From a virus (Duplodnaviria; Caudoviricetes), in IMG/VR virus record IMGVR_UViG_3300037467_000541, positions 1-46,412 of that record: a stretch of 46,412 nt of DNA; one strand, 5' to 3'. Shown in pieces: positions 4,630-28,213 of this stretch; the first letter of the stretch is position 1, and every line of letters starts with the position of its first letter. A program made the translations under genes and the position numbers. The notes below the pieces were generated by a model. The model was given only the letters and a program-made list of their open reading frames with translations. It was not told the origin of the DNA and made no database searches.

Positions 4630-4714
4630 GCCCGAGTGGTGAAACTGGTAGACGCAGCGGCTTTAGGTGCCGCCGCCGAGAGGCGTGTCGGTTCGAGTCC
4701 GACCTCGGGCACCA
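4630..4714 (+). tRNA. tRNA-Leu(TAG)
   Basis: Acceptor GCCCGAG/CTCGGGC, D-loop GG, anticodon arm GCGGC-TTTAGGT-GCCGC, long variable arm, GTTCGAGTCC T-loop, encoded ACCA; 85 nt. Confidence 0.95.
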
Positions 4715-13860: not shown

Positions 13861-14033
13861 TCTTCGTAGACCTCGGGGTTGGACGCGCGTTCGAGCGCGA
13901 AGTGGTACTCGGTGGGTGAGAGCTGTTGTCGCGTGCTCTCGCTGACGTACCCATGGGTCTTCAGCTCGAACACCGCGCGCTGCACGGCGTGGTTCATGGT
14001 GAAGTGCGCTCCGCTTGCAGAGGGCGTGGTCAC
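13857..14033 (-). CDS. Hypothetical protein (about 58 aa)
   Basis: AAGGAG SD; GTGA overlap. Confidence 0.55.
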   Translation of the reverse strand: MTTPSASGAHFTMNHAVQRAVFELKTHGYVSESTRQQLSPTEYHFALERASNPEVYEE

Positions 14034-15541: not shown

Positions 15542-15544
15542 AAA

Positions 15545-15562: not shown

Positions 15563-18097
15563 TTAGGCAAAGAAGAAGTCCGACTGCTTCACGGCCTCCA
15601 GGTCCAGGTCGCCCACCGGGGGAACCGGGGGGATCTTCTCGGCCAGCTCAGGCTTCACCATGCGGAGCTGCTCGACGATCTCCTCGCGGAAGTGTTCGAG
15701 CACCGGCTGGCTGTACTGGTCGACGAACGCCTCGCGCAGAACTGCGTTGAGAAGCGTCGTGTCAGCCGCGTGCACGCCGAAGGAGTCGTGGATCATGGCG
15801 AAGTGGTGGATGCCGTTGGCCGTTGCGAGGTTGACCGTGTTCAACAGGTGCGAGGCATCGAGCGAGTGCACGAAGTTCGGCGCGACGCCGCTGCCCTGGC
15901 GCCGGCTCGACAGCTTCGAGGAGTCCGACTTCAGCGCGAAGCGGATCCGCTTGCCCCCGACGAAGACCTTGAGGATGCTCTCGGTCTGCTCGCGATAGTC
16001 CTGCAACACCGGCAGCCCGATGGGCGACGTCCAGCGCAGCGGGATTCCTGCCTGCACGGCGATGTCGGCGACGTCCTGGAGCCAGTCCATCGCGCGCCGC
16101 GCCGCGACGACGGTATCGCCGAGCGCGTCCCACACCAGGTTCGACATATAGAGCGCGGCCTTGTACCGGTCGACGTGCTCCGGCAGGTACGCGCCGTGCT
16201 CCTCGTCCAGCTTGTGCAGCGCGTGTTCGATCTGCCCCTTCATGCCGTACCGCGTGGCCGAGTAGCACAGCGTCATCGTCGGCTGCTTGGCGACCTTGCG
16301 GCACACCTTGCCCTGCCACGCTTGCGCCATGTAGTCATCGGTTCCCCCGAGGCAACCATTTGACAAAGCCTGGGCGCGCTCGGCAACCATCGAGTAGATG
16401 TCCGAGGGTCTTTCGGCCGGTACCAGGTTCACCGCAGCGCCGCCGACGGGATCGCGCAAGAGCGCCGAGTAGTGCTGAAGGCCCGAGCATGAGCCGTCCA
16501 TTGCGATAGGCAGGTGCGAGACGTGCGCGTTGCCGTTGAGCTTGTATCCGAGCCAGTCGTAGCACGCGGCGATGGCCTGAAACGGTTTCTCCGCCGTCGT
16601 CCAGAAGCGCGACTCTTGCGGATCGAGCGCGCTCGCCATGATCTCTTCCTCGTGCTCGTGCGTCCACGCGACGCGCTCGTCGAAGGACACCTTGTCGATG
16701 CCCCACAGGCCGGCGATGTGCACCGCGAGCCAGAACGCGCCGTCTTCGCCCAGCGGTTTGCCGTCGGCGAACTCCAGCATCGCGCGGCCGACGTCATCGG
16801 CCTGCGGGTTGAGGTAAGACGCCATCGGGTAGATGCGCCCGCGGAAGTCAAGGTAGTGCGGGAAGTAGATCGCTCGCTCGTCGAGGAAGCGGTACGCGAC
16901 GTAAAGCTTCTGCGACAGGATCACGCGATCCTTTTCGTTCGCCTCGTTCTTCGCGTGCACCTTCGAGGCTTCGGCCTTCCACACCGTCATCGCCTCGCGC
17001 TGCATGGTCGTCATGTCCTTGACCTTCAGCCCTTTCGGGATCCCGACGGGCAGCGGAGGCATCGGGTAGTCGTTTTCGCGCGGCAGGCCCTTGACTGCGC
17101 CACCGCCGCGGGACATCTCCTCCTCGATCACGCCGAGCACGGCCCGATTGATGCGCCAGGGTGTGCGCTGCACGGCGTTCACCGCCGAGAGCACGCGCGT
17201 CAGGTCGACGCCTCCGAGTTCGTCGAGGTAGCCGCGGCTGCGAGTGCGGACCAGCTTCGGCCGGATGACGTCCGTCAGGTAGCCGCCCGAGTACGGGGTG
17301 CGCCAGTCGCGCGGCGGCGCCACCATCGGCAGATGGATCGGCGACAGCAGCTCGCAGCGCCCGTGCATGGACTCCAGCCAGCTCACCGTCTCGGGACGGA
17401 ACACGAGGAACTGCGGGTCGCGCTTGCGGCCCACACTGCGCTGCTCGATGTTGAACAGCTCGGTCGCGTCGAGGGCCAGCTCGACCAGCTTGGTCCCCAG
17501 CAGGATCTTCTCGCGCTTCGACCACGACAGGCTCGCGAGCTGGTACTTCTCGCGGACGTGGGAGAGCACGCCGAGCCGGTGCTTCGCCGAGGTCGACGTT
17601 GCGAGCTGGCGCTCCAACTTCGCGTACAGCCCGCCGTGGTCCTTCGACAGGCGGAGCATCTCCAGGTGCTCGTAGAGCGCGTCGCCCACGTTGTAGGCGA
17701 TGGCGGCCAGGGTCAGGCCGGCGCTCGCCCCGTTGATGGCGTGGCGCGCGGTGAGGTAGGCGGCCTGGAGCGGGTCGACGTTGGCGAGGTAGGGCAGGGC
17801 GCTGTGCTTCTTGCCGGCCTTGCCCGAGCTGGCTTCGACGATGAACTGCTCGATGGACTCGGCGATGGGCTCGACGATCTCGCGAAGCAGGGTCTTGCCG
17901 GGCGCGAGGTCGGCCTCCTCCTTCCGGCCGGGGTCGCGTGCCTGCCACGGCAGCGGCTTCTCGGCGCGGTAGCGGGTGCGCCCGAGCGCCACCGCCTCCT
18001 GCTCGATCTCGGCCTGACGCTCTTCGAGGGTCGTCCCCTCATCGAGCATGTTCAGCAGTCGGTCCCTCTCGGGATCGAAGGATTCCGTGTCGTACAT
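15563..18097 (-). CDS. gp1: Single-subunit DNA-directed RNA polymerase (T7 gp1-like), 844 aa
   Basis: DFRGRIYP, DGSCSGLQH, RKVAKQPTMTLCYS, APNFVHSLDASH, IHDSFG, C-terminal FFFA; ATG at 18097 after the AAGGGAGA SD. Confidence 0.97.
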   Translation of the reverse strand: MYDTESFDPERDRLLNMLDEGTTLEERQAEIEQEAVALGRTRYRAEKPLPWQARDPGRKEEADLAPGKTLLREIVEPIAESIEQFIVEASSGKAGKKHSALPYLANVDPLQAAYLTARHAINGASAGLTLAAIAYNVGDALYEHLEMLRLSKDHGGLYAKLERQLATSTSAKHRLGVLSHVREKYQLASLSWSKREKILLGTKLVELALDATELFNIEQRSVGRKRDPQFLVFRPETVSWLESMHGRCELLSPIHLPMVAPPRDWRTPYSGGYLTDVIRPKLVRTRSRGYLDELGGVDLTRVLSAVNAVQRTPWRINRAVLGVIEEEMSRGGGAVKGLPRENDYPMPPLPVGIPKGLKVKDMTTMQREAMTVWKAEASKVHAKNEANEKDRVILSQKLYVAYRFLDERAIYFPHYLDFRGRIYPMASYLNPQADDVGRAMLEFADGKPLGEDGAFWLAVHIAGLWGIDKVSFDERVAWTHEHEEEIMASALDPQESRFWTTAEKPFQAIAACYDWLGYKLNGNAHVSHLPIAMDGSCSGLQHYSALLRDPVGGAAVNLVPAERPSDIYSMVAERAQALSNGCLGGTDDYMAQAWQGKVCRKVAKQPTMTLCYSATRYGMKGQIEHALHKLDEEHGAYLPEHVDRYKAALYMSNLVWDALGDTVVAARRAMDWLQDVADIAVQAGIPLRWTSPIGLPVLQDYREQTESILKVFVGGKRIRFALKSDSSKLSSRRQGSGVAPNFVHSLDASHLLNTVNLATANGIHHFAMIHDSFGVHAADTTLLNAVLREAFVDQYSQPVLEHFREEIVEQLRMVKPELAEKIPPVPPVGDLDLEAVKQSDFFFA

Positions 18098-18138
18098 AGT
18101 GGTCTCCCTTGTGGCTATGGGGCTCTGCCCCTTCGCAG

Positions 18139-18157
18139 CTCTCCCTGGCCCTAATCG
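18139..18157 (-). promoter_or_regulatory. Putative phage RNAP promoter upstream of the RNAP gene itself
   Basis: Exact 19-bp motif about 40 bp upstream of the start codon. Confidence 0.72.
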
Positions 18158-18171
18158 AGCGCGGGAAAATC

Positions 18172-18187
18172 GTTGCCCCGAGGCAAC
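18172..18187. promoter_or_regulatory. Putative operator GTTGCC-N4-GGCAAC
   Basis: Perfect palindrome 14 bp from the promoter motif. Confidence 0.6.
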
Positions 18188-18190
18188 CAT

Positions 18191-18416
18191 CTGTGCCACG
18201 GGGTGTGTCCAGACGCGGCACACCGGCCGAAACTGTGCCGGCTGTGCCAAGTCCGAAAGCGCTAAGTGATTGGTATCGCTAGACGACCGCTGGATTTAGG
18301 TTGCCCAGCGGTCCCCCCTAAGCAGTTGATTCAGTGGACTTTCGGCGCCGAAACTGTGTCATCTCGCACTGGAGCGGCGAAACCGGTGTTAATGGTTGCC
18401 TCCAGTTTTGACACAG
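18191..18416. other. attP: Putative attP site
   Basis: Core CTGGA-TTTAGGT-T (~18290-18302) inside the inverted repeat GACCGCTGG/CCAGCGGTC. IHF-like sites at 18263-18275 and 18319-18331. Arm-like CTGTGYC repeats, including GCCGAAACTGTG at 18226 and 18347. Adjacent to the integrase 3' end. Confidence 0.75.
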
Positions 18417-19479
18417 CCGTATGCGCCTCCAGCGCGGCGAGCGCGACGCCCATGCTCGACGGGGCCAGGTGCGCGTACCGCTCGGTCGTCTTGATCGAGG
18501 TGTGCCCCAGCCAGTCGCGGACCATGTAGAGGGATACGCCCGCCTGCACCAGCCGGCTCGCGCAGGTATGGCGCAGGGTGTGAAGGGTCACGCCCTTGAT
18601 CTTTGCCCGCTCGCACGCCGTGCGGAACCGCAGGCCCATCCAATGCGTCGTCGAGTAGGCCGGGTTCTTGGCCCGCTCCTGGAGATAGGCGTGCACCGGC
18701 GACGCCAGGATCTTGTCGAGGCTGGCCCTGGCCCGTGTGGTGAGCGGCACGGTCCGGCCGCGATCATTCTTCGTGGACCCGTGCGGGAGCCACACCTTGT
18801 CCCCGAGGTCTTGCTCGGGCGTCAGCATGGCCTCGCTGGCCCGGAGGCCGGTGTCCAGCAGGAAGGGGACCATCGCCAGCATGTACTGCGCGTCGGCGTC
18901 TCCCGGCGCCGCGTAAGCGGCCATGGACGACAGCAGCCGCTCCTCCTCGCCCGTGGTGAGGTAGCGCTCCTTCAGGTTGCGCTCCTTCCATCGGGGGAAC
19001 GGCGGCAACGACTCGATCTCGCCGCGGAGCTTCGCGTCGTTCATCGCCGCGTGGATGCAGGACATCTTTCGGTTGCGCGTGGCCGGTGCATCGCCGTCCC
19101 GCTCCAGCTCGTGACCGTAATCGAGGAGCCGCTGGTATGTGATCGACTTCAGCGGCCAGTAGCCGATGTCTCGGATGAGCTGCTGCACGACGTAGCGCCG
19201 CTCGCGCGCCGACTTTTGATCGGACCAGCGGTCGGCCATCGACTTCTGGAGCGCGTACGCGAGGTTCACCGCATTGCCCGCTTGCTTGCGAGCTTCGGTG
19301 AGCGTGACGGTGCCCAGGAGATGCTCTCGCATCTTTTCGGCAGCAGCTAGTGTGGCGAGCGAGCGCCCTTCGTCAGGCAGACGACGGTCGACCTTTACAC
19401 CGGTCGACAAGCGCTGCCGTTCGTTCGCGGAATCAACGAAGTGGACTTGCCACATTCCTCCGCGCTTGATGAGCTTCAT
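18331..19479 (-). CDS. int: Tyrosine recombinase / phage integrase
   Basis: TGLRASE (R), STKN (K), HTLRHT (HxxR), LGH, TERYAH (Y). Confidence 0.95.
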   Translation of the reverse strand: MKLIKRGGMWQVHFVDSANERQRLSTGVKVDRRLPDEGRSLATLAAAEKMREHLLGTVTLTEARKQAGNAVNLAYALQKSMADRWSDQKSARERRYVVQQLIRDIGYWPLKSITYQRLLDYGHELERDGDAPATRNRKMSCIHAAMNDAKLRGEIESLPPFPRWKERNLKERYLTTGEEERLLSSMAAYAAPGDADAQYMLAMVPFLLDTGLRASEAMLTPEQDLGDKVWLPHGSTKNDRGRTVPLTTRARASLDKILASPVHAYLQERAKNPAYSTTHWMGLRFRTACERAKIKGVTLHTLRHTCASRLVQAGVSLYMVRDWLGHTSIKTTERYAHLAPSSMGVALAALEAHTAVSKLEATINTGFAAPVRDDTVSAPKVH

Positions 19480-19509
19480 TTGGGTGGTCTCCCTTGCGTT
19501 GCATCTGTA

Positions 19510-19875
19510 TCACTCGCCGCGGCCAAATGCCCGCTTCATCGCGCGAGTTAGTATCCGCTCGCCTTCCTTAGATAGGCTCACGACGCGATTCCGCATGTCA
19601 TTAGGATCGAGGTCGACGGTTAGCATTCCTAGGCCATCCTCGCGCTTTACCGCACCAGCAGAGCCAGCTAGGTTCGCAATGATCTTCGAGAGGGTGGGCT
19701 TTAATAGATCGGCCTCGTCCGCAAGTTGCTGTTGATTCGTAGGTACGCCCCCACGCGCCCCGACACTCAGCAGGACAAGTGCCTGCCGAAGTGTCAGGTC
19801 GTGCGAGGTGCTATCGGCGATCTCCTTCAACGCCCTACGGACGGTCGCGATCTGCATGGTGGTGGTGTGGTCCAT
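19510..19875 (-). CDS. MarR-family winged-helix regulator (candidate repressor)
   Basis: LTLRQALVL...QQQLA...KPTLSKIIANL...DPNDMRNRVVSLSKEG. Confidence 0.85.
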   Translation of the reverse strand: MDHTTTMQIATVRRALKEIADSTSHDLTLRQALVLLSVGARGGVPTNQQQLADEADLLKPTLSKIIANLAGSAGAVKREDGLGMLTVDLDPNDMRNRVVSLSKEGERILTRAMKRAFGRGE

Positions 19876-20026
19876 CGTTCCTCGTTTTCCTTACACTGAA
19901 AATGAAACGCCTACCCCCGAGTACCAGCGTGTATGTTGTTTCCCGCTCAGTTGCGGTCCTTGTGAATCCTTCCTCGACTTCCTCTCCGGCCAACAATCCC
20001 TCGACGGCGAAGTCCACGTTTTTCAT
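19835..20026 (-). CDS. Hypothetical protein (63 aa)
   Basis: TAAGGA SD; overlaps the repressor start. Confidence 0.45.
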   Translation of the reverse strand: MKNVDFAVEGLLAGEEVEEGFTRTATERETTYTLVLGGRRFIFSVRKTRNDGPHHHHADRDRP

Positions 20027-20065
20027 AGATGCGTTTCCTTAGGCTCTCTCACTAAAAAGCCATAG

Positions 20066-20081
20066 GGGCACGCCGCTTGCC
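20066..20081 (+). promoter_or_regulatory. sigma54-type promoter for candidate sRNA-1
   Basis: GGGCACGCCGCTTGCC matches GG-N10-GC / GGCACG-N4-TTGC; predicted +1 ~20092. Confidence 0.6.
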
Positions 20082-20091
20082 CGCATCCCAG

Positions 20092-20244
20092 CGGGTTCGG
20101 TTTCCAGTCTAAAGCGGTCTCCCTTGTGGCAACAAGTTCCCAGCGTCAACTTCCGACAGCCGGAAACCGGACTGCCGATGTAGCACGGTGGCCGGGGCGT
20201 CGGAACATGACGGTGGTCACAATTCCGACGAGCGGCCCCTTTTT
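20092..20244 (+). ncRNA. Candidate antisense sRNA-1 carrying the anti-RBS seed GGUCUCCCUUGUGGC
   Basis: 11-bp closing stem 20095-20105/20162-20172 with a G-U pair on +, seed at 20116-20130, then a long hairpin 20194-20239 and T5. Confidence 0.65.
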
Positions 20245-20295
20245 GGTTTCTGCCGGGTTTAACCCTTCAGGCGCGCGGCATTAACTGAGGCCGCT

Positions 20296-20496
20296 CTACG
20301 CACCCTCCTGCGTCATCTCGTCGATGACAATGGTTTCCTTGTCGCCACGGGTCACGCCGCTCTCCCGCAAGAAGCGGGCGCGGTCGAACCTGGGATTGGT
20401 ACCGGCGAGCGCGGTTGCCAGAGCCGCGACCACACTAGGTCGCGCCTTTGCCTCCCGCAGGGTGCCGGCGATGAGTTGGAAGTCACGCCGAGTCAT
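20296..20496 (-). CDS. Hypothetical early protein (66 aa)
   Basis: GGGAGACC SD; MTRRDFQLIA...TNPRFDRARFL. Confidence 0.75.
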   Translation of the reverse strand: MTRRDFQLIAGTLREAKARPSVVAALATALAGTNPRFDRARFLRESGVTRGDKETIVIDEMTQEGA

Positions 20497-20665
20497 CGTT
20501 GAGGTCTCCCGGCTCGAACTCCATCGGGGAGCCGCACAGGTCGCACTCGGGCACATGCCCGCCGCGCAAGATGTCGGAGAGCGCTTCGTCGATTGCGCGG
20601 CACTTCGGGTTGGTGCACTGGGTCTCGATCCAGCGCAGCTTTCGTTTTGCGGCGTAGCTACTCAC
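20483..20665 (-). CDS. Small zinc-finger protein (60 aa)
   Basis: CTNPKC...CDLC; GGAGG SD; GTGA coupling. Confidence 0.6.
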   Translation of the reverse strand: MSSYAAKRKLRWIETQCTNPKCRAIDEALSDILRGGHVPECDLCGSPMEFEPGDLNDDSA

Positions 20666-21330
20666 GACACGCCCTCCGCGAACTGCAACAGGTAGTCGAC
20701 TGCGGCTTCGGCCTTCGGGAGCGCCGCGCGCCACGCCGCTTCGGCCTTGGCGGGCGACCCGAGCGAAACCGTCCAGTTGAGCAGGTAGGCCGCACGCTCT
20801 TGGTACTGCGGGTCCGCACCGATGGCGTCGAGCAGCAGCGCCGATCCGATCTCGGCGATCAGCTCTTCCTCGGCGTAGCCGTCCGGCTTGATGTCGTGCG
20901 CCCGCTCGAAGAGCGTTTGCCCGATGGCAGGACGCGACATGCGGCCAGCTTCCTGCGTCCAGTGGATCAGCTCGTGCGCCAGTGTCGCGACGCGATCCGC
21001 TTCACTGCGGAATGCTTCGGGCATCGGCTGGAGAATCCACAGGGAGCCGAAGGGGACCGGCTCGCCTCTCTTGAGGGCGCTATTGAACGCGGCGACATTC
21101 GCCGACTCGACGCCGCCGTAGTAGATCGGCGGGCGCGCGTTTGCGAGGATCGCATCGAGCGTCCGATAGCCGGTCGGGATGTAGTAGCCGAGGTCGGTAG
21201 GCGGTGGCGCGTTGTGGTCGCGACGGATGAAGTCGTCCGTTTCTCCGTGCGCCCGCGCCCACGCGGGATCGGTTGCCTTCAGCGTTCGGAACAAACGCTC
21301 CTCGGCCGGGTAATAGTCGTGGTGTTTCAT
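20662..21330 (-). CDS. ArdC-like zincin metallopeptidase (MPTase-type) domain protein
   Basis: TLAHELIHWT...YAEEELIAEIGS...AAYL..W. Confidence 0.8.
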   Translation of the reverse strand: MKHHDYYPAEERLFRTLKATDPAWARAHGETDDFIRRDHNAPPPTDLGYYIPTGYRTLDAILANARPPIYYGGVESANVAAFNSALKRGEPVPFGSLWILQPMPEAFRSEADRVATLAHELIHWTQEAGRMSRPAIGQTLFERAHDIKPDGYAEEELIAEIGSALLLDAIGADPQYQERAAYLLNWTVSLGSPAKAEAAWRAALPKAEAAVDYLLQFAEGVS

Positions 21331-21405
21331 GGTGGGTGGTCTCCCTTGTCCGGGCGTGCTTGCCCGCATCGGCGCCCGCGTGTGCAGGCGCCGAAACTGG
21401 TCAGC

Positions 21406-21729
21406 TCACTTCGCGTCGTGGATCAGGCGCGTGGTCGTGCGGTTGGCCTCCAGCCAATCCGTCACCAGCGGCAGCGCGCGTTCGTAATCGCGGCCGGCGA
21501 CGGTAAGCCAGCGCTTGCCCGCGAATACGTTGGACGTGGTGCCGAAGCGCACGCGCGAGCGGATGCGCGCAGGACGCAGGACCTCGGCGCGCACGCGCTC
21601 GATCTCTGCGCGCGACTCGTCCGAGCGTGCGGGGCTATCCGGCGCCATGCCGGTGTCACTCGCGCCCGCTACTGCGTACTGCGGTATCCAGTAGCCGCGC
21701 CATCCGTCGATTTTGTGGAAGCGGATCAC
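21406..21729 (-). CDS. Hypothetical early protein (107 aa)
   Basis: GGGAG SD; GTGA coupling. Confidence 0.7.
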   Translation of the reverse strand: MIRFHKIDGWRGYWIPQYAVAGASDTGMAPDSPARSDESRAEIERVRAEVLRPARIRSRVRFGTTSNVFAGKRWLTVAGRDYERALPLVTDWLEANRTTTRLIHDAK

Positions 21730-22004
21730 GACACGCGCTCCCGCAACAGCGCGCGGTTGAACTGAATCGTCCCTTCGCGAGAGCGCTGGTCGCCCTTCGG
21801 CATCTGCGCGCCGTAGTGCGCCATGACGTTTTCGAGCGTCGCTGTTGTCAGGTCCAGCGCATCGGCGAAGACCTCGAAGTCTGCCCGCGCCAGTCGCGCC
21901 TCACGCGCACGTTTGGCGGCGCGAATAGAACGCTCTTCTGCGAGCGCACGCGCGCCCTTGCCCGCGCCGGGGCCGATTCCGTTGATTGCCTTGATGGTGT
22001 GCAT
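21726..22004 (-). CDS. Hypothetical early protein (92 aa)
   Basis: Starts at a repeat-borne RBS. Confidence 0.75.
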   Translation of the reverse strand: MHTIKAINGIGPGAGKGARALAEERSIRAAKRAREARLARADFEVFADALDLTTATLENVMAHYGAQMPKGDQRSREGTIQFNRALLRERVS

Positions 22005-22075
22005 GGTGGTCTCCCTTGTTCGGCCAACGTCGGCCGGTGATGCGCCCGCCGAAACAGGCGCATCCCCTGCGAACG

Positions 22076-22561
22076 TCAGCGCTCGCAGCCGCGCACGAAT
22101 GCGCGCACGAACGGCCGCGGTTCGCGCTGGTCTCGCGAGTGCTCCGCATCGCGCGACGGCTCGGAATCCGCCGCGGTGATGGCCGCAAACGCATTCGCGA
22201 TGAACTCCGGGTCGACCGTCGCGGATTCGATACGCGCAACGGCGTCCGCAGTCGTGCCCGCATACCTGCCGTCCTGCGGAATGGCGACGATCTCGTCGTC
22301 ATCGGCGCCCTCGGAGTCGTAGTCGACGATTGCGACGTCGACCGGCACGGTGCCGTCAGACAGTACGGCTTGGACAAGCCCGCCTTCGAGGTTCACCAGG
22401 ACGCGCACGGGCTGCTGAAGCGCACGCTCGGCTTGCGCGTGCAGCGTTGCCCAGTCTCCGTGCGTCGCCCACTCTTCCGGGTTCGTGACGCGCTGGAGAT
22501 GCTCAACGGTTCGCATGTAGTCGCGGAGCGCGTCCGCGACGGTGGTAGGTGTTGCTCGCAT
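22076..22561 (-). CDS. Hypothetical early protein (161 aa), acidic core
   Basis: Starts at a repeat-borne RBS; VLVNLEGGLVQAV...VAIVDYD. Confidence 0.75.
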   Translation of the reverse strand: MRATPTTVADALRDYMRTVEHLQRVTNPEEWATHGDWATLHAQAERALQQPVRVLVNLEGGLVQAVLSDGTVPVDVAIVDYDSEGADDDEIVAIPQDGRYAGTTADAVARIESATVDPEFIANAFAAITAADSEPSRDAEHSRDQREPRPFVRAFVRGCER

Positions 22562-22632
22562 TGGTGGTCTCCCTTGTACGGCCAATGGCGGCCGGTGATG
22601 CCCGCGACATGCACGGGCATCCCCTGCGGTCA

Positions 22633-22833
22633 TCAGTGCGTCATGCGACGGTGCACATAGCCCGCCTCGATCAGCGCGGCAGCGGTGCGCCCGTAGTGGC
22701 CTTGCAGTTGCCACACGGTGCCGTCGTCGACGAGCGACTGGAAAAACGCGACCATCTCGTCGCGGTCCATCTCGCCCGCCTCGTACTGCATGATTTGGAA
22801 AACGCGGTCCGGGTGTGTTTCTGCGGTTTTCAT
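22633..22833 (-). CDS. Hypothetical early protein (66 aa)
   Basis: Repeat-borne RBS; IMQYEAGEM...FQSLVDDGTVWQLQGHYGRTA. Confidence 0.8.
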   Translation of the reverse strand: MKTAETHPDRVFQIMQYEAGEMDRDEMVAFFQSLVDDGTVWQLQGHYGRTAAALIEAGYVHRRMTH

Positions 22834-22907
22834 GGGTGGTCTCCCTTGTGGTTCCCCGTGGGGAACCGTTGCGGTGATGGCGAAGGTAGCGCACAGGCTA
22901 CCACGGG

Positions 22908-23261
22908 TCAAGCGGCTGCACGCGCAGGCGCCGGTGCGGTGACGAAGTAGCCCGCGACCGCTTCAACTTCGAGCACTACGGATTCCTGCCCGAAGGCTTC
23001 GCGCACGCGCTCTGCGGTCTCTACCGGGTCCCTGCGGCCGGACACGTCGTCGGCCAGGATCACGAACCGCTTGCCCGCTTCCGTGACTAGCTCGCCTTTG
23101 CCGTTGACCCATCCGCCGTAGGTGTCGGTTTCCGTGTAGCCCCCGAAGGTGGCCGCAAGGTCGCCGCGCACGGCGGCGAGGACGGTGGCGAGCGTGCCCG
23201 CGTCGATAGGTTCGCCGGAAGCGTCGAAGCCTGCGCCGGTGGTGATGGTAATGCGTTGCAT
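22908..23261 (-). CDS. Hypothetical early protein (117 aa)
   Basis: Repeat-borne RBS; FGGYT...GGW...FGQESV. Confidence 0.78.
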   Translation of the reverse strand: MQRITITTGAGFDASGEPIDAGTLATVLAAVRGDLAATFGGYTETDTYGGWVNGKGELVTEAGKRFVILADDVSGRRDPVETAERVREAFGQESVVLEVEAVAGYFVTAPAPARAAA

Positions 23262-23335
23262 GGTGGTCTCCCTTGTTCGGCCGACGGTGGCCGGTGATGC
23301 CCGCGACGGTGCGCCGTGGGCATCCCCTGCAATCG

Positions 23336-23575
23336 TCAAGCGTTCTCGGCGATGTCACGTTCCCACGCGCGGCGGATCAGGTCGCGCGCTGCGTCGATCA
23401 CGTCACGCGCTGCTGCGCGCTCGTCGCGCCAGTACAGGAAGCGTTGCAGGCTTAAGCGTGGCGACGCTTTGCGAAGGGCGCGCAGGCGCACCACGTCGCG
23501 CGCGTCGCGCTCTGCGCGGATCGTCTCCGCTTGATCGAGCGTCACGGGTTCCCATGCGGTGAGTGTCGGTTCCAT
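23336..23575 (-). CDS. Hypothetical early protein (79 aa)
   Basis: Bounded exactly by two repeats. Confidence 0.72.
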   Translation of the reverse strand: MEPTLTAWEPVTLDQAETIRAERDARDVVRLRALRKASPRLSLQRFLYWRDERAAARDVIDAARDLIRRAWERDIAENA

Positions 23576-23646
23576 GGTGGGTCTCCCTTGTGCGGCCGAC
23601 GGTGGCCGGTGATGCGCCCCACGCGGAGGCGCATCCCCTGCAATCG

Positions 23647-24033
23647 TCAGGACAGCGCGAGCGCGGACAGGATCACGATTAGCTGCGCCTCGGGCGTGCA
23701 CAGCGCGTTGCTCACGAACTGCGACCAGCTCCAAGGCTGTCCCGCTTGCTTCGCGCGTGCGCCCGGCAACGTGTCGCCGATGTACGCACCCAGCATGATC
23801 GGCAGCAGCAGGACCGCGGCGAGATGCCAGAGCACGCCCGACACCAGCCCGAGACCTCCGCAGAACTCGCCACCGATCACGGCATAGGCGAGCGGGCGCG
23901 GAACGTGCGTGGTCCGGCAAATGAAGGGGACCACGCGCGAGCGCACGGCCGGAAGGAAGCATTTACGCGCGCCGGTCACGGCGAAAAAGACACCCGTGGA
24001 AACGCGCAGGACATCGAGCGCGAGCGCATCCAT
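23647..24033 (-). CDS. DoxX-like membrane protein
   Basis: LRVSTGVFFAVTGARK...EFCGGLGLVSG...AAVLLLPIMLGA; GGAGGT SD. Confidence 0.7.
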   Translation of the reverse strand: MDALALDVLRVSTGVFFAVTGARKCFLPAVRSRVVPFICRTTHVPRPLAYAVIGGEFCGGLGLVSGVLWHLAAVLLLPIMLGAYIGDTLPGARAKQAGQPWSWSQFVSNALCTPEAQLIVILSALALS

Positions 24034-24034
24034 A

Positions 24035-24526
24035 TCACGCGACCTCCAGAACGCGCGGCGCACCTAGCGGCGCGTCGCCTTCGGCATCGAGCGCAACGGC
24101 GATGGATTCCATGCGGAGCGCGTCACCGGTCGCGCCTTCATCGGCGAGCGCGGCGAGGTTCGCGAACGCGCGCGACAGGCTGCGCCCCATCTCGGCGAGG
24201 GACTGGCCGTTTTCCTGCGCCAGCGTGATCGCCATGTTGTAGACCGCGACCATGTAGCAGCCGGGACACAAGGGCTGCGCATCGGGCCCGAAGGTCTGCG
24301 CATAGGTGCGCGTCCCGTCGTTGAGCGCGTCCGTGCGCATCATCGTATCGAGGTAGCCCGCGAGCGTTGCACCAGTCTCCGCGCGCTGCCCGTCTTGAAT
24401 GTGGATGAGGTCGCACGCGCCGCGGTAGACCATGCCGGTCTCCGCATTGCGGGTGCGCGTGGTGGTGGTGGGCAGTGCTACCGCTTCACCAGCGGAGGCG
24501 CCTGCTGCTGCGATGAAATCAAACAT
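24035..24526 (-). CDS. Hypothetical early protein (163 aa)
   Basis: Repeat-borne RBS; contains CPGC. Confidence 0.72.
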   Translation of the reverse strand: MFDFIAAAGASAGEAVALPTTTTRTRNAETGMVYRGACDLIHIQDGQRAETGATLAGYLDTMMRTDALNDGTRTYAQTFGPDAQPLCPGCYMVAVYNMAITLAQENGQSLAEMGRSLSRAFANLAALADEGATGDALRMESIAVALDAEGDAPLGAPRVLEVA

Positions 24527-24596
24527 GGTGGTCTCCCTTGTTCGGCCTGATGGCGGCCGGTGGTGCGCCCTCGCGAGGAAGGCGCACCGCCTGCGG

Positions 24597-24812
24597 TCAT
24601 CCGTGCAACTCGCCCGATGCGATGCGCGCCAGCGTGCAAACGACCAGCAGCCCCGCGAGCGTCGCGATGTACTGGTGCGCGCCCGCAATCTCCGCGCTGT
24701 GATAGGCGAGTTCCCCGAAGACGCCCGCGTGTCCCGCACGCTTGAGCGCGTGGCCGTGGTGGCGATGGAAGAGGCGCCAATGTGCCTTGAGGTGACGTGT
24801 CTGCCGTTTCAT
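24597..24812 (-). CDS. Small His-rich membrane protein (71 aa)
   Basis: GAGGG SD; C-terminal hydrophobic segment. Confidence 0.55.
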   Translation of the reverse strand: MKRQTRHLKAHWRLFHRHHGHALKRAGHAGVFGELAYHSAEIAGAHQYIATLAGLLVVCTLARIASGELHG

Positions 24813-24822
24813 GTCGAAGCCC

Positions 24823-24987
24823 TCAGGGAGACACCGCGACGCCGACCAGCAGCAGCGCGAGGAAGAGAGCGCACCGGGCGAACATGCCAGCGGGCGCACC
24901 GGGCGCGAACGCAGAGAGCGCGGCGAAGTCGTCGGCCGTCTGCGCGTAAAGCGCCAGCTCGGAAAGGTGGGTGAGTCGGTCGTGCAT
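24823..24987 (-). CDS. Small membrane protein (54 aa), first gene of the early array
   Basis: Repeat-borne RBS; C-terminal TM. Confidence 0.65.
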   Translation of the reverse strand: MHDRLTHLSELALYAQTADDFAALSAFAPGAPAGMFARCALFLALLLVGVAVSP

Positions 24988-25031
24988 GGTGGTCTCCCTT
25001 GTGGCGCCGACGCCCGGCGCACCCGTAGGAA

Positions 25032-25048
25032 TGCAGGAAGCGTGCCAA
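25032..25048 (-). promoter_or_regulatory. sigma54-type promoter of the early operon
   Basis: TTGGCACGCTTCCTGCA versus consensus TGGCACG-N4-TTGCW; predicted +1 ~25021 coincides with the first repeat hairpin. Confidence 0.72.
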
Positions 25049-25091
25049 TCGTAAACCGTTGAGCGGACGCAACGGTCGCCCGAAGGGAACC

Positions 25092-25136
25092 GACGCGCAG
25101 CGTCAGAAGTTGACGCAGAGCGTCCGAAGGTGACGC
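25092..25136. promoter_or_regulatory. Tandem palindromes GACGC-N3-GCGTC (candidate enhancer or operator)
   Basis: Full sites at 25092-25104 and 25112-25124, half-site at 25132-25136; 20-bp period. Confidence 0.55.
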
Positions 25137-25138
25137 GG

Positions 25139-25486
25139 TTAGCTAGTCGCCAGCGCGACCGCGGCGAGCGCGACCACAGCCAGCGCAACGCGCGGCAGGC
25201 GCCCCAGCCAGAGCGCGAGGGCAGCCCCCAGCCCCCATGCGGCGCCCACGGCCGGCGCGTGCGGCTCGATCAGGCGCGTTGCGCCCACCGTGACGCAGAG
25301 CCCCACCGCGAGCCCCGCGAGCGCATAGGGCAGCAGCAGCGCCAGTGCCCACAGGAGACGCGAGCGGGCACCGTCGAGGGCATCGGCAGCGGGCGCCCAC
25401 GGTGCGCCCTGAGGTGTCCGTGTGGTGTCCTGAGGGCCGGCCCCAGCGGTGGCCGTGCGGTGTCCTTTCGGGAACCTTGCGGGCAT
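25139..25486 (-). CDS. Putative membrane protein (115 aa)
   Basis: GGAGAG SD; three hydrophobic segments. Confidence 0.5.
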   Translation of the reverse strand: MPARFPKGHRTATAGAGPQDTTRTPQGAPWAPAADALDGARSRLLWALALLLPYALAGLAVGLCVTVGATRLIEPHAPAVGAAWGLGAALALWLGRLPRVALAVVALAAVALATS

Positions 25487-25492
25487 GGCGTG

Positions 25493-25510
25493 CTCTCCGT
25501 GGCCCTAAGC
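25493..25510 (-). promoter_or_regulatory. Degenerate phage-promoter motif near the genome end
   Basis: TTAGGGCCACGGAGAG (one mismatch in the core). Confidence 0.45.
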
Positions 25511-26104
25511 AAAAAAACAGGGCACCGCGAGGACGAACGCAAACCGCGGGCCAGTCAGGCGCAGAGCGTGCACCCGGTGGCCGTCAGGATCACGTCAGGG
25601 CACCAGCGCACAGCATCAGACATCCAGTGCAGGGCCCTTAGGAATCAACAGGTTGCCCCTCGGACCGTGCCATGGCGTGCCAGCAGGCGCCCCAGCGGTG
25701 GCCCGTCGGCCCCGTTCGAACGCAGGCCGGGCGACCCCCCACGGGGGATTCTGGCCGCGCCGCGGTGGATCGAGACGCCTCGCAATTTCTCGTGAAAATC
25801 TAGCCCCCCGTGCCATTGGTCATGCCCAGGGGACCTCTTAAGGCCCCTCGGGCTTTCCACATGGATCCGCGTGCGCGCCGTCACAGTTTCCCATTCATTT
25901 TCCAGCCAGCAACACAAGTCGGTTCTGTGTAGCGTGAAGACTCATGAGGGAGACCAATCGCTGTGCCTGGGGGGAACCCGAGGGTTCCTTTCGGTATGAC
26001 CACTACCACTACACCCATACCCATCCCATAGGGGTGTCCCCTAGGAGCACCGTCAGGTGCTCCACAGGGTCCCCTTAAGGGGGCGCGCGTGCGCGCGTAC
26101 TAGT

Positions 26105-26250
26105 TATGGGTGTCGGCTACGTGGTGTTCTTTCAGTCCGCCTCCGGCCGGGGGACGACCCCGACCAAGGGAGACCAATCCATCGGGAGGATCGGCGCCGC
26201 CCGACCGGAGGGGACGTCTGGAGTGTAGCCCGACGCTGCCCGACACGAAC
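26105..26250 (-). ncRNA. Candidate antisense sRNA-2 with the anti-RBS seed in a terminal loop
   Basis: Long hairpin (26210-26201/26150-26141 plus inner stems, G-U pairs on -) with loop CUCCCGAUGGAUUGGUCUCCCUU. 5' GUGUCGG can pair with 3' CCGACAC. Confidence 0.62.
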
Positions 26251-26260
26251 ATTACGTTCA

Positions 26261-26276
26261 CGCAAGTCGTGTGCCG
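26261..26276 (-). promoter_or_regulatory. sigma54-type promoter for candidate sRNA-2
   Basis: CGGCACACGACTTGCG matches GG-N10-GC; predicted +1 ~26250. Confidence 0.58.
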
Positions 26277-26288
26277 TTGGTCGCATTG

Positions 26289-27992
26289 CTACCGCCGTAG
26301 AGCGCGGTTGGTCATGCTGAAGCCCTGGCGCGGGTCCTTGCCGCCGTACCACTGGCGGATGAACTCGCGACGCATCTTCTCCCGCTCGGCCTCCAGGTGG
26401 GCCGCTTCGGCCGCTTGGGCGTCCTGCTGGAGCTGGGCGCGGAAGTAGCGCACGCCGTGGGCGAGGATGTCCACGCGGTCGTCTTGCTTCAGGGAGTCGC
26501 GGTCGCGGGTGATGTGCGTGAGCTGGTAGAGCAGCGAGTTCGTGCCGGCGAGGATGTCGGCCTTCGCGCACGCGGCGTCGATGACCAGGCGGTGCTGGTT
26601 GAGCACCGGCTCCAAGTCCTCGATGATGCGGCGCTCCTTCTGCCCGGCCGCCTTCACTTCGGTCAGCGTCACCGGGTAGGTCTTCGCGACCACAGGCGCG
26701 AGCAGCGCCAGGAACATGCCGTCGCCGAAGTTCGACTCGATCAGGATCTCATTGACCTCGTGATCGCGCGCGACGTTGGCGAGCCCTTGCAGCGTCGCCT
26801 CGCCGTAGCCGTCGGTGAACCCTCCGGTGGCCTTGAGGAAGAGCTGCCCGGCCATGTGGAAGAGCACCACGTAGGCCGTCTCGTTCTTGCCGCGGCCCGA
26901 GGGGTCGATGACCATGATGCGGCCCTGGTAGGGCAGCATCGTGTCGCTCGCGTACATCGGCCGGTACAGGCGGTCGCCGTTGAAGCCCACGTTGTCGATC
27001 TGCGCGTCATTGCGCGGATCGCTCGTCCACACCAGCTTCGCCGGTGCGAGCTTCAGGTCGACGTCCATGCAGATGAAGTCGGACGTGCGGAGCGGATAGC
27101 GCAGCGCATCGCTCAGGCTCGTGTCGAGCATGAACTGCAAGGCGAAGCCGCTGGCGCCGTAAGACGCGCGCCGCTCCGCCAGGTCCATGTCGGTGAACCG
27201 CTCGGGATCCGTCGAGTGCCCGGCGAGCGCCGGATTCTTGTCGAGGTCCTCGGCGATGTCGGGCGCGAGGTTGCCGCCGTACTTCGCGCGCTGCTCCGGC
27301 GTCGGATACAGCGCCGGCCAGATGCGGATCTTGTAGCCGCGCCCTTCGAGCAAGCGGTACACGCTCTGCTCGGTCTGCGGCGTGCCGAGATACACGACGT
27401 CGCCGCCCGGCATCAGGATCGCGTCGAACTCCTTGATGGCCTCCGCGAGCTTCTCGCGCATGACCTCGGTCAGAGAGTTCTTCGGATTCTCGATGTCGTC
27501 CGCGACGATCAGCGATGCACGGCCACCGGTGATGCCACCAGTGATACCCGCAGCGCGCACTGAGGGCGCCTGGTGGGCTTCTGAAGGGCCCACGTCGAAT
27601 GCCAGCACGCTATCGCGTTGGCCTTCGCGCGGACGCAGGAATTGCAGCAGCTCGATCTCGTCGATCAAGCGGCGAGTGAACGTCGCGAACTCAGTCGCCT
27701 TGTACTCGTTCGCCGAGACGACGAGGATGCGCTCGTTCGGATTCCGATAGAGTCGCCACAGCACGAAGGCCGCGGTGATCCACGACTTGCCGAGGCCGCG
27801 GAAGCCCTGCGTCATCGAGCGACGCGGGCCATGCTGGAGCCAGAGCGCGACGGCGTACTGCCGCAGCGTCGGCTTCAGCCCCAGGTGCCGCAGGATGAAC
27901 CACAGGAAGTACCGGAAGTCGTCGTGGAGCTTCTTCTCGGAGTCCGTCTGGACCCACTCGGGGTAGGCGACGGGGGTCTTGGGGGACTTCAT
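26289..27992 (-). CDS. terL: Terminase large subunit (T7 gp19-like)
   Basis: QGFRGLGKSWITAAFVLW, ITGGRASLIVADDIE, YLGTPQ, IDPSGRGKNET, DDRVD. Confidence 0.96.
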   Translation of the reverse strand: MKSPKTPVAYPEWVQTDSEKKLHDDFRYFLWFILRHLGLKPTLRQYAVALWLQHGPRRSMTQGFRGLGKSWITAAFVLWRLYRNPNERILVVSANEYKATEFATFTRRLIDEIELLQFLRPREGQRDSVLAFDVGPSEAHQAPSVRAAGITGGITGGRASLIVADDIENPKNSLTEVMREKLAEAIKEFDAILMPGGDVVYLGTPQTEQSVYRLLEGRGYKIRIWPALYPTPEQRAKYGGNLAPDIAEDLDKNPALAGHSTDPERFTDMDLAERRASYGASGFALQFMLDTSLSDALRYPLRTSDFICMDVDLKLAPAKLVWTSDPRNDAQIDNVGFNGDRLYRPMYASDTMLPYQGRIMVIDPSGRGKNETAYVVLFHMAGQLFLKATGGFTDGYGEATLQGLANVARDHEVNEILIESNFGDGMFLALLAPVVAKTYPVTLTEVKAAGQKERRIIEDLEPVLNQHRLVIDAACAKADILAGTNSLLYQLTHITRDRDSLKQDDRVDILAHGVRYFRAQLQQDAQAAEAAHLEAEREKMRREFIRQWYGGKDPRQGFSMTNRALRR

Positions 27993-28213
27993 GGGTCTCC
28001 AATGGCCCAGGAAGGCCCCTCCCTGGCCCCACACGGGGCGCGCAGGAGGGGGCCGCTAGGGTAGTACCGGGTAGGCAATGGTTGCCCTTAGGGGACGTTT
28101 GGCGGGTCCATCCTGAATGGGATGGGGAGGAGCACGAGATACCCGTGCGCCTCCGCCCACGAGATCCAGATGGCCGCCACCTTGCAGGCAACGACCAGGG
28201 TCTCGATCACGAC

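Follow-up and report, generated by a model that had tools for sequence, protein, structure and literature searches.

The DNA analyzed here, which we call the window, is the 46,412-nucleotide (nt) phage sequence IMGVR_UViG_3300037467_000541 (Duplodnaviria; Caudoviricetes) at its full length, a complete 46.4-kb virus record with every gene on the minus strand. Among its genes are those of a T7-type RNA polymerase (RNAP), whose top cultured relatives are those of phages jiawei, S2B, and LUZ100 (40-45% identity), of a tyrosine integrase (Int), and of a T7-type terminase, as well as a MarR-type gene directly upstream of the integrase gene. T7-type RNAP, tyrosine integrase, and a MarR-type gene upstream of the RNAP gene are the marks of a MarR-Int module, and all three were found. 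Here we describe a tag shared by the ribosome-binding sites (RBSs) of ten genes and a hairpin with the complementary loop downstream of the terminase large subunit gene (terL), and consider whether they form an antisense regulatory system (Table 1).

Table 1. Positions of the tag copies, the terL hairpin, and surrounding features in the window
Feature	Position	Strand	Remarks
T7-type RNAP gene	15563-18097	-	by comparison with cultured phage RNAPs
RBS tag, T7-type RNAP (start 18097)	18101..18111	-	full tag in the window phage only
Putative promoter for the phage RNAP, before the RNAP gene	18141..18158	-	repeat recurs at 15542 (after RNAP) and 1829
Inferred attP core GATTTAGGTT	18293..18302	+	between integrase and RNAP
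Integrase	18331-19479	-	PF00589
RBS tag, integrase (start 19479)	19486..19496	-	
MarR-type repressor gene	19510..19875	-	without tag; PF12802, E 1e-5; phrog_9665
Structured intergenic region before the MarR operon	20051..20244	.	holds the 20116-20126 copy; folds on both strands (-89.1 vs. -82.5)
Early gene	start 21330	-	zincin-like, anti-restriction-like protein
RBS tag, early gene 21330	21338..21348	-	
RBS tag, early gene 22004	22008..22018	-	leader cassette
RBS tag, early gene 22561	22566..22576	-	leader cassette
Early gene	start 22833	-	DUF7417
RBS tag, early gene 22833	22838..22848	-	
RBS tag, early gene 23261	23265..23275	-	leader cassette
RBS tag, early gene 23575	23580..23590	-	leader cassette
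RBS tag, early gene 24526	24530..24540	-	ends two-hairpin leader cassette
RBS tag, early gene 24987	24991..25001	-	
Two-hairpin leader cassettes	22010-22080, 22570-22640, 23270-23340, 23585-23650, 24535-24605		
Second, partial anti-tag copy, 13 nt	25945..25957	-	unstructured; downstream of the hairpin, same strand
Predicted antisense RNA hairpin, 81 nt	26135..26215	-	about 32 bp, 4 G·U pairs
Apical loop GGAUUGGUCUCCCUUG (16 nt, seed)	26165..26180	-	complement of the tag
Candidate -10 hexamer TACACT	26222..26227	-	6 nt upstream of the stem; putative host promoter
terL, last late gene	26289..27992	-	Pfam PF22530, PF03237

An exhaustive scan of both strands found 12 exact copies of CAAGGGAGACC in the window, against 0.04 expected, and none of 100 shuffled sequences reached 12. 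Ten of the copies sit 3-7 nt upstream of an ATG, at eight early genes, the integrase gene, and the RNAP gene; all the coordinates given for them in an earlier note, made from the sequence alone, hold. The other two are a tag-sense copy without a start codon (20116-20126) and an opposite-strand copy (26165-26175). The same note had seen no full copy before a middle or late gene. This is correct for exact copies, yet near copies exist, one with a single mismatch upstream of the GTG start at 14033 and the partial tag GGAGACC upstream of the terL ATG at 27992. A partial tag also precedes the coupled early gene at 20496. Judged from the GGAGACC site, the hairpin loop might also act back on terL, which has a weak promoter-like site at 28036 (4 mismatches to the phage promoter) upstream of its start.

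The tag contains a workable Shine-Dalgarno (SD) sequence. Scored against a generic anti-SD sequence, which may differ from that of the host, it reached -8.6 kcal/mol; 23 other starts averaged -6.3, and four of these scored lower than the tag. Thus, the tag is a good SD but not the best one, and its fixed flanks call for an explanation other than SD strength. Among 2.9 million viral contigs, the exact 18-mer that includes the ATG occurs in only seven stretches. Four of the phages found with it (L014, L016, L017, and L020) form a separate group with one exact tag-plus-ATG before the same conserved gene. L014-L017 and L020, with one tag copy each, gave no T7-type RNAP or TerL match in the stretches examined and no covariance-model match, and were left out of the comparison. 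The possibility that the tag is the +1 region of a phage promoter was ruled out, since a distinct promoter motif exists.

Five or six of the tags form the 3' end of a longer repeated leader cassette carrying two hairpins, with up to 90 nt of imperfect repeat in common; a scan of viral contigs for the long cassette pattern gave no match. Repeated leader hairpins of this kind resemble the RNase III punctuation of T7. The tags could have spread as part of a copied leader, made of RNase III-like or stabilizing hairpins and a good SD, and the terL hairpin could be a 3'-end or packaging structure with a captured inverted copy and no regulation in trans. The shared leaders and the SD score fit this explanation. 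The integrase and RNAP tags, however, stand without cassette hairpins, and the rarity of the 18-mer also argues against it; the evidence from relatives, given below, bears on it further.

The hairpin begins 74 nt after the terL stop, and the reversed tag copy is its apex. Its minimum free energy is -53.2 kcal/mol (z -3.7), compared with -45.8 for the opposite strand. Opening the loop costs 1.4 kcal/mol for the 6-nt core and 5.8 for the 12-nt seed, and the complementarity between loop and tag runs past 11 nt towards the AUG. We compared the window with five relatives, four of them picked independently of tag or loop: L018 (RNAP 68%) was found by the tag pattern, and L024, L027, L030, and L109 were found by TerL or integrase protein. 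A single-protein integrase scan found no relatives.

Counterparts of the hairpin were found 3' of terL in L018, L024, L109, and L027 (TerL 71, 79, 70, and 62%). In all five phages, including the window phage, the hairpin is a single rod with one loop. The loop is identical in the window, L018, L024, and L109, whereas the stem diverges. In each of the five, folding favors the anti-tag strand by 7-11 kcal/mol, and this strand contains 3-5 G·U pairs, compared with none on the other strand, which indicates that the RNA is probably read in the terL direction. In the four aligned hairpins, 5 of 23 stem pairs changed on both sides, a number that 8 of 500 shuffles equaled or exceeded; this control takes no account of relatedness. 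In all five phages, the stem is preceded at a distance of 3-6 nt by a TAnnnT hexamer (background 0.6% genome-wide and 3-6% in right-end DNA), which in two of them includes the terL TAA stop. The stem begins 3-10 nt after the terL stop in three relatives. In L018 (L018:5357-5390) and L109 (L109:2235-2255), the hairpin is closely followed on its own strand by a tag-sense GGGGAGACC, not seen in the window, which could hide the loop in a longer precursor. In addition, all five relatives keep a near-palindromic TAGTA/CGCGCG block (window 26080-26107) 50-110 nt past the hairpin, which may be a signal for packaging or concatemer processing.

No such hairpin and loop were found in L026 and L038/L039 (TerL 61-62%) or in remoter phages by motif scan or by a covariance model that also missed L027; long hairpins follow terL in relatives without tags, as an origin as a 3'-end structure would have it. 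The covariance model, run over 100 sources, recovered only its four training sequences. Rfam gave only a Streptomyces-metH match (E 2) in 17900-26400, taken as a chance combination of hairpin plus SD; across the window, two tRNAs were the sole matches at gathering score. The hairpin matched only chance 20-26-nt pieces in 50,697 phage records by blastn, and megablast of the region against cultured phages gave nothing real.

Of the 879 candidate starts in the window, the ten with a tag ranked 1-10 for predicted pairing with the 16-nt loop, and the net pairing energy after opening both RNAs was -11 to -14 kcal/mol for all ten. In G002, the tagged starts took ranks 1-9 of 947. The most distant relative, L027, has the loop GGAUUGGUCUCUUAG, which contains the changed reading GGUCUCUUAG, and its tags have undergone the matching change. 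With the L027 loop, the L027 integrase and three early starts took ranks 1-4 of 1180 (G001); with the window loop, these four dropped to ranks 4, 7, 8, and below 10. A fifth, short early open reading frame of L027 also matches the L027 loop. Across the five L027 tags, five internal positions depart from the perfect complement, each by an A-to-G change opposite U, and two terminal positions mismatch. Cognate pairing exceeded noncognate pairing in both directions. For the terL loop, the agreement between seed and start regions and the change of seed and tag together in relatives, which the earlier note had named as checks, were borne out, the latter in L027. The integrase leader of L030, whose contig is without its own hairpin region, matches the window-type hairpin perfectly over 19 nt, through the AUG.

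These comparisons weigh on the copied-leader explanation. The loop stayed invariant while the stem diverged, and in L027 the tags changed along with the loop, among them tags in which the SD was weakened. We therefore consider it unlikely that the tags and the terL hairpin reflect cassette copying alone. Hairpins similar in kind to those of the cassettes, but of other sequence, are present in L018.

Which genes would the RNA control? The integrase is tagged in all four phages compared (window, L018, L030, and L027), and the MarR gene in none of three; the duplex of the loop with the window MarR start reaches only -7.8 kcal/mol. The RNAP start, which the earlier note had placed among the general targets, ranked 134 of 947 (G002), 31 of 254 (L030), and 20 of 1180 (G001) for loop pairing, which does not support RNAP as a general target. 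In L030 and L031, the tag also precedes the first genes after RNAP, which are the first middle genes. By prediction, the conserved target core is the early genes plus the integrase.

The earlier note had gone further and proposed that two antisense RNAs, from the 26165 and 20116 copies, silence the whole early program, including RNAP, as the primary immunity or lysis-lysogeny switch. Part of this stands. At 26165 the antisense orientation is supported, and the phage has one conserved, covarying, structured anti-tag element, the terL hairpin. The second RNA is not supported. At 20116, the plus strand gives the better local stem (20059-20130; four G·U pairs compared with one), but the seed is buried by pairing with an upstream mimic; opening it would take 15.7 kcal/mol in the local stem and 5.4 within 200 nt of context. 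The copy is flanked on the plus strand by a TAnnnT hexamer (20040-20045) and, near 20244, by a GC stem plus T5, so that a plus-strand RNA over the region is possible. Neither L018 nor L027 has an exact tag copy at the equivalent position. Two alignments disagree on the L018 counterpart. In one of them, the 20116 copy coincides with the -10 position of the promoter that L018 shows for the MarR operon; L018 also has a G·U-compatible site at a similar distance from the next ATG, although about five such sites are expected by chance in 21 kb. The region may encode a plus-strand RNA, hold a promoter-overlapping copy, or be a cassette relic. The tagged RNAP of the window, the flanks of the 20116 stem, and the tagged middle genes of L030 and L031 favor a two-RNA switch. 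The buried and unconserved seed, the low RNAP ranks in all three relatives, and an untagged MarR-type repressor gene, which leaves the RNA no need to be the switch itself, make it improbable.

The 20116 alignment is also an argument for a different idea, in which a protein would bind the tag as an asymmetric DNA site, like a stoperator or a MarR operator, with the reversed copy as one more site. According to the available text on temperate mycobacteriophages, these carry asymmetric 13-bp stoperators (PMC3203893). However, a DNA site would explain neither the strict SD register nor the restriction of variation to G·U-compatible changes, nor the finding that in all five phages the reversed copy forms the apex of a hairpin with a strand bias, and we regard it as very unlikely indeed.

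Taking together the tag and its register, the complementary loop, the conserved hairpin, and the matched change of loop and tags, we think it probable that one antisense hairpin RNA, made late or in the lysogen, represses translation of the early genes and the integrase gene while sparing the MarR repressor. We infer its transcription, timing, and repressive effect as follows. An RNA of about 80 nt would be made just after terL, from the host-type -10 hexamer and by terL read-through. Its loop would pair with the shared tag over the SD and the start and block translation by ribosome occlusion, possibly with RNase III cleavage. Targets would be the integrase gene and the first gene of each early cassette; in the window phage alone, RNAP would also be damped. 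In T7-like phages the right genome end enters the cell last, so that the RNA would appear late in infection and could act as a late brake, stopping early and integrase synthesis once the genome has entered.

In the prophage, the RNA would persist and hold down the integrase and leaky early genes while MarR stays on, supporting MarR immunity rather than replacing it. It would thus uncouple the MarR-Int operon, with the repressor on and the integrase off; in LUZ100, according to the available text, MarR and Int are cotranscribed from a host promoter (PMC10134795). Both roles, late brake and lysogen control, would follow from the same anatomy, which does not separate them.

The pairing evidence is neutral as to sign, and leader structure adjoins the tag. 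The loop might therefore pair with the tags without repressing, by opening leaders, guiding processing, or recruiting a factor that boosts early translation. But the predicted duplex covers the SD and reaches the AUG, the tags cost only 2.7-5.5 kcal/mol to open and would need no activator, and the hairpin gene lies at the end inferred to enter last. We judge such nonrepressive pairing to be quite unlikely.

Several observations count against repression by a hairpin RNA. Only five phages carry the hairpin, four with an identical loop, so that the covariation comes from one lineage, L027. The covariance model failed to recover the L027 hairpin. In a blind tag-loop scan of 15 phages, the window (z -6.7) and L031 (z -8.9) stood out, but the L027 phage was missed (z -0.8), its weak-SD starts having been filtered out; three phages without a repeated tag scored about -3, and nine scored between -1.1 and +0.4. 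The first early gene of L109 and the window start at 14033 have a G-to-A mismatch to the loop. No -35 element was found upstream of the hairpin, and no U-tract follows it in any of the five phages, so that the intrinsic terminator typical of Hfq-dependent small RNAs is missing; a sigma-70/terminator consensus scan found no promoter and terminators at chance level. None of the public runs listed with the phage sequence is an RNA run that would show the predicted transcript. In the Cluster K phages compared below, Ekdilam and Cain keep the canonical tag while the CU-rich loop drifted, and four others have no loop match.

Further features concern integration and the origin of the phage. In L030, too, the 10-mer GATTTAGGTT lies between the integrase and RNAP genes, and record G001 has it at both termini; it is inferred to be the att core, and no host attB was seen. 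The same 10-mer lies in the anticodon arm of a tRNA-Leu(TAG) of L027. This tRNA is complete in both L027 (L027:15248-15332, minus strand) and the window (4630-4714, plus strand), on the strand opposite the genes, and may substitute for a host tRNA disrupted by integration. A phage-promoter copy with three mismatches lies at 25495-25512, near the inferred left end, preceded by a T-tract kept in relatives. A small open reading frame directly upstream of MarR (19835-20026) has no family match and a weak look-alike in L018. Phage DNA was found in three public soil metagenome runs, as the full contig in one, possibly the source, and as exact pieces in two, with no informative variants across them. 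A TerL search of GTDB gave one contig, ending inside terL, and no host.

How does the predicted RNA compare with known systems? T7-like phages are thought to depend on promoters plus a protein repressor. LUZ100 and S2B share the order of the window, MarR-Int and then RNAP with its own upstream promoter; neither tag nor anti-tag hairpin was found in S2B or jiawei, and the available part of the LUZ100 study mentions an antisense RNA only in the structural region (PMC10134795). The available description of the C4 RNA of P1/P7 gives a length of about 77 nt, loops that pair with phage mRNA partly over an RBS, a role in supporting lysogeny, and a specificity set by minor loop changes (PMC5320573). 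Likewise, the window loop is predicted to pair over phage RBSs, with its sequence setting specificity. In contrast, C4 has three stem-loops, two seed loops (a' and b'), RNase P processing, and one adjacent target operon, whereas the window has one rod hairpin with one loop and about ten targets 1-8 kb away that share an address. The Rfam covariance model of C4 had no match in the window. The CI RNA of P4 is a related antisense immunity RNA. P22 Sar, lambda OOP, and aQ, according to the part of the source available, are phage RNAs by which a regulatory mRNA of the phage becomes less translated or less stable (PMC12197685); they are cis-encoded with one target each, unlike the predicted window RNA.

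In the full-text literature searched, outside which most subscription papers lie, the published phage antisense RNAs found have one neighboring target each, and a single RNA directed against the RBSs of many early genes of its own phage was not described for T7-like phages or for the start-associated sequences (SAS) of mycobacteriophages. The comparisons support well what would be a new variant of antisense translational control. If true, a one-to-many RNA with a purpose-built address would add a new layer to phage timing and lysogeny control and give a simple answer to the uncoupling of cotranscribed repressor and integrase. The window and L027 loop-tag pairs, partly orthogonal by predicted pairing, may also serve as natural riboregulator parts.

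The closest layout is that of SAS. In Cluster K phages these are invariant, asymmetric 13-bp tags at the RBS position of a subset of nonstructural genes, often with an upstream repeat, and K1 phages have one reversed copy (PMC3203893, available part). SAS-type tags also occur in Cluster EF Microbacterium phages (PMC7302621), and the available sections of two mycobacteriophage papers leave their role open (PMC11373665, PMC12699233). The window shows the same traits, with 10 copies of an invariant asymmetric motif 3-7 nt before starts (3-9 nt in SAS) of a nonstructural subset, and a single reversed copy without a start codon, seen in L018 too; in neither phage does this copy begin a plus-strand open reading frame. 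In Adephagia, we found the single reversed SAS to be the loop of a long conserved hairpin in the gap between genes 92 and 93 (58660-58711; L189:30661-30712), where late transcription starts according to the available text (PMC11373665). The loop matched SAS in 4 of 13 Cluster K records, had drifted in three, and was absent in others; SAS-loop covariation was sought in Ekdilam and Cain and not found. The stem is kept more widely, with 4 of 18 pairs compensating among 6 of 11 aligned sequences, which we selected. Unlike in the window, the Adephagia integrase start is absent among the SAS matches, and the SAS sequence and phage family are unrelated to those of the window, with neither a Cluster K consensus nor shared descent. 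The K1 SAS are thus a partial parallel. Both could tentatively be seen as private translational regulons, in which one hairpin RNA would silence all genes that bear a fixed RBS address; in the T7-like clade of the window, the RNA would time the end of the early and integration program and its loop sequence would set heteroimmunity. This is a possibility we hold with less than even confidence; it would explain the K1 SAS, unexplained since 2011, and the shared layout makes their role testable in a culturable phage, Adephagia of M. smegmatis.

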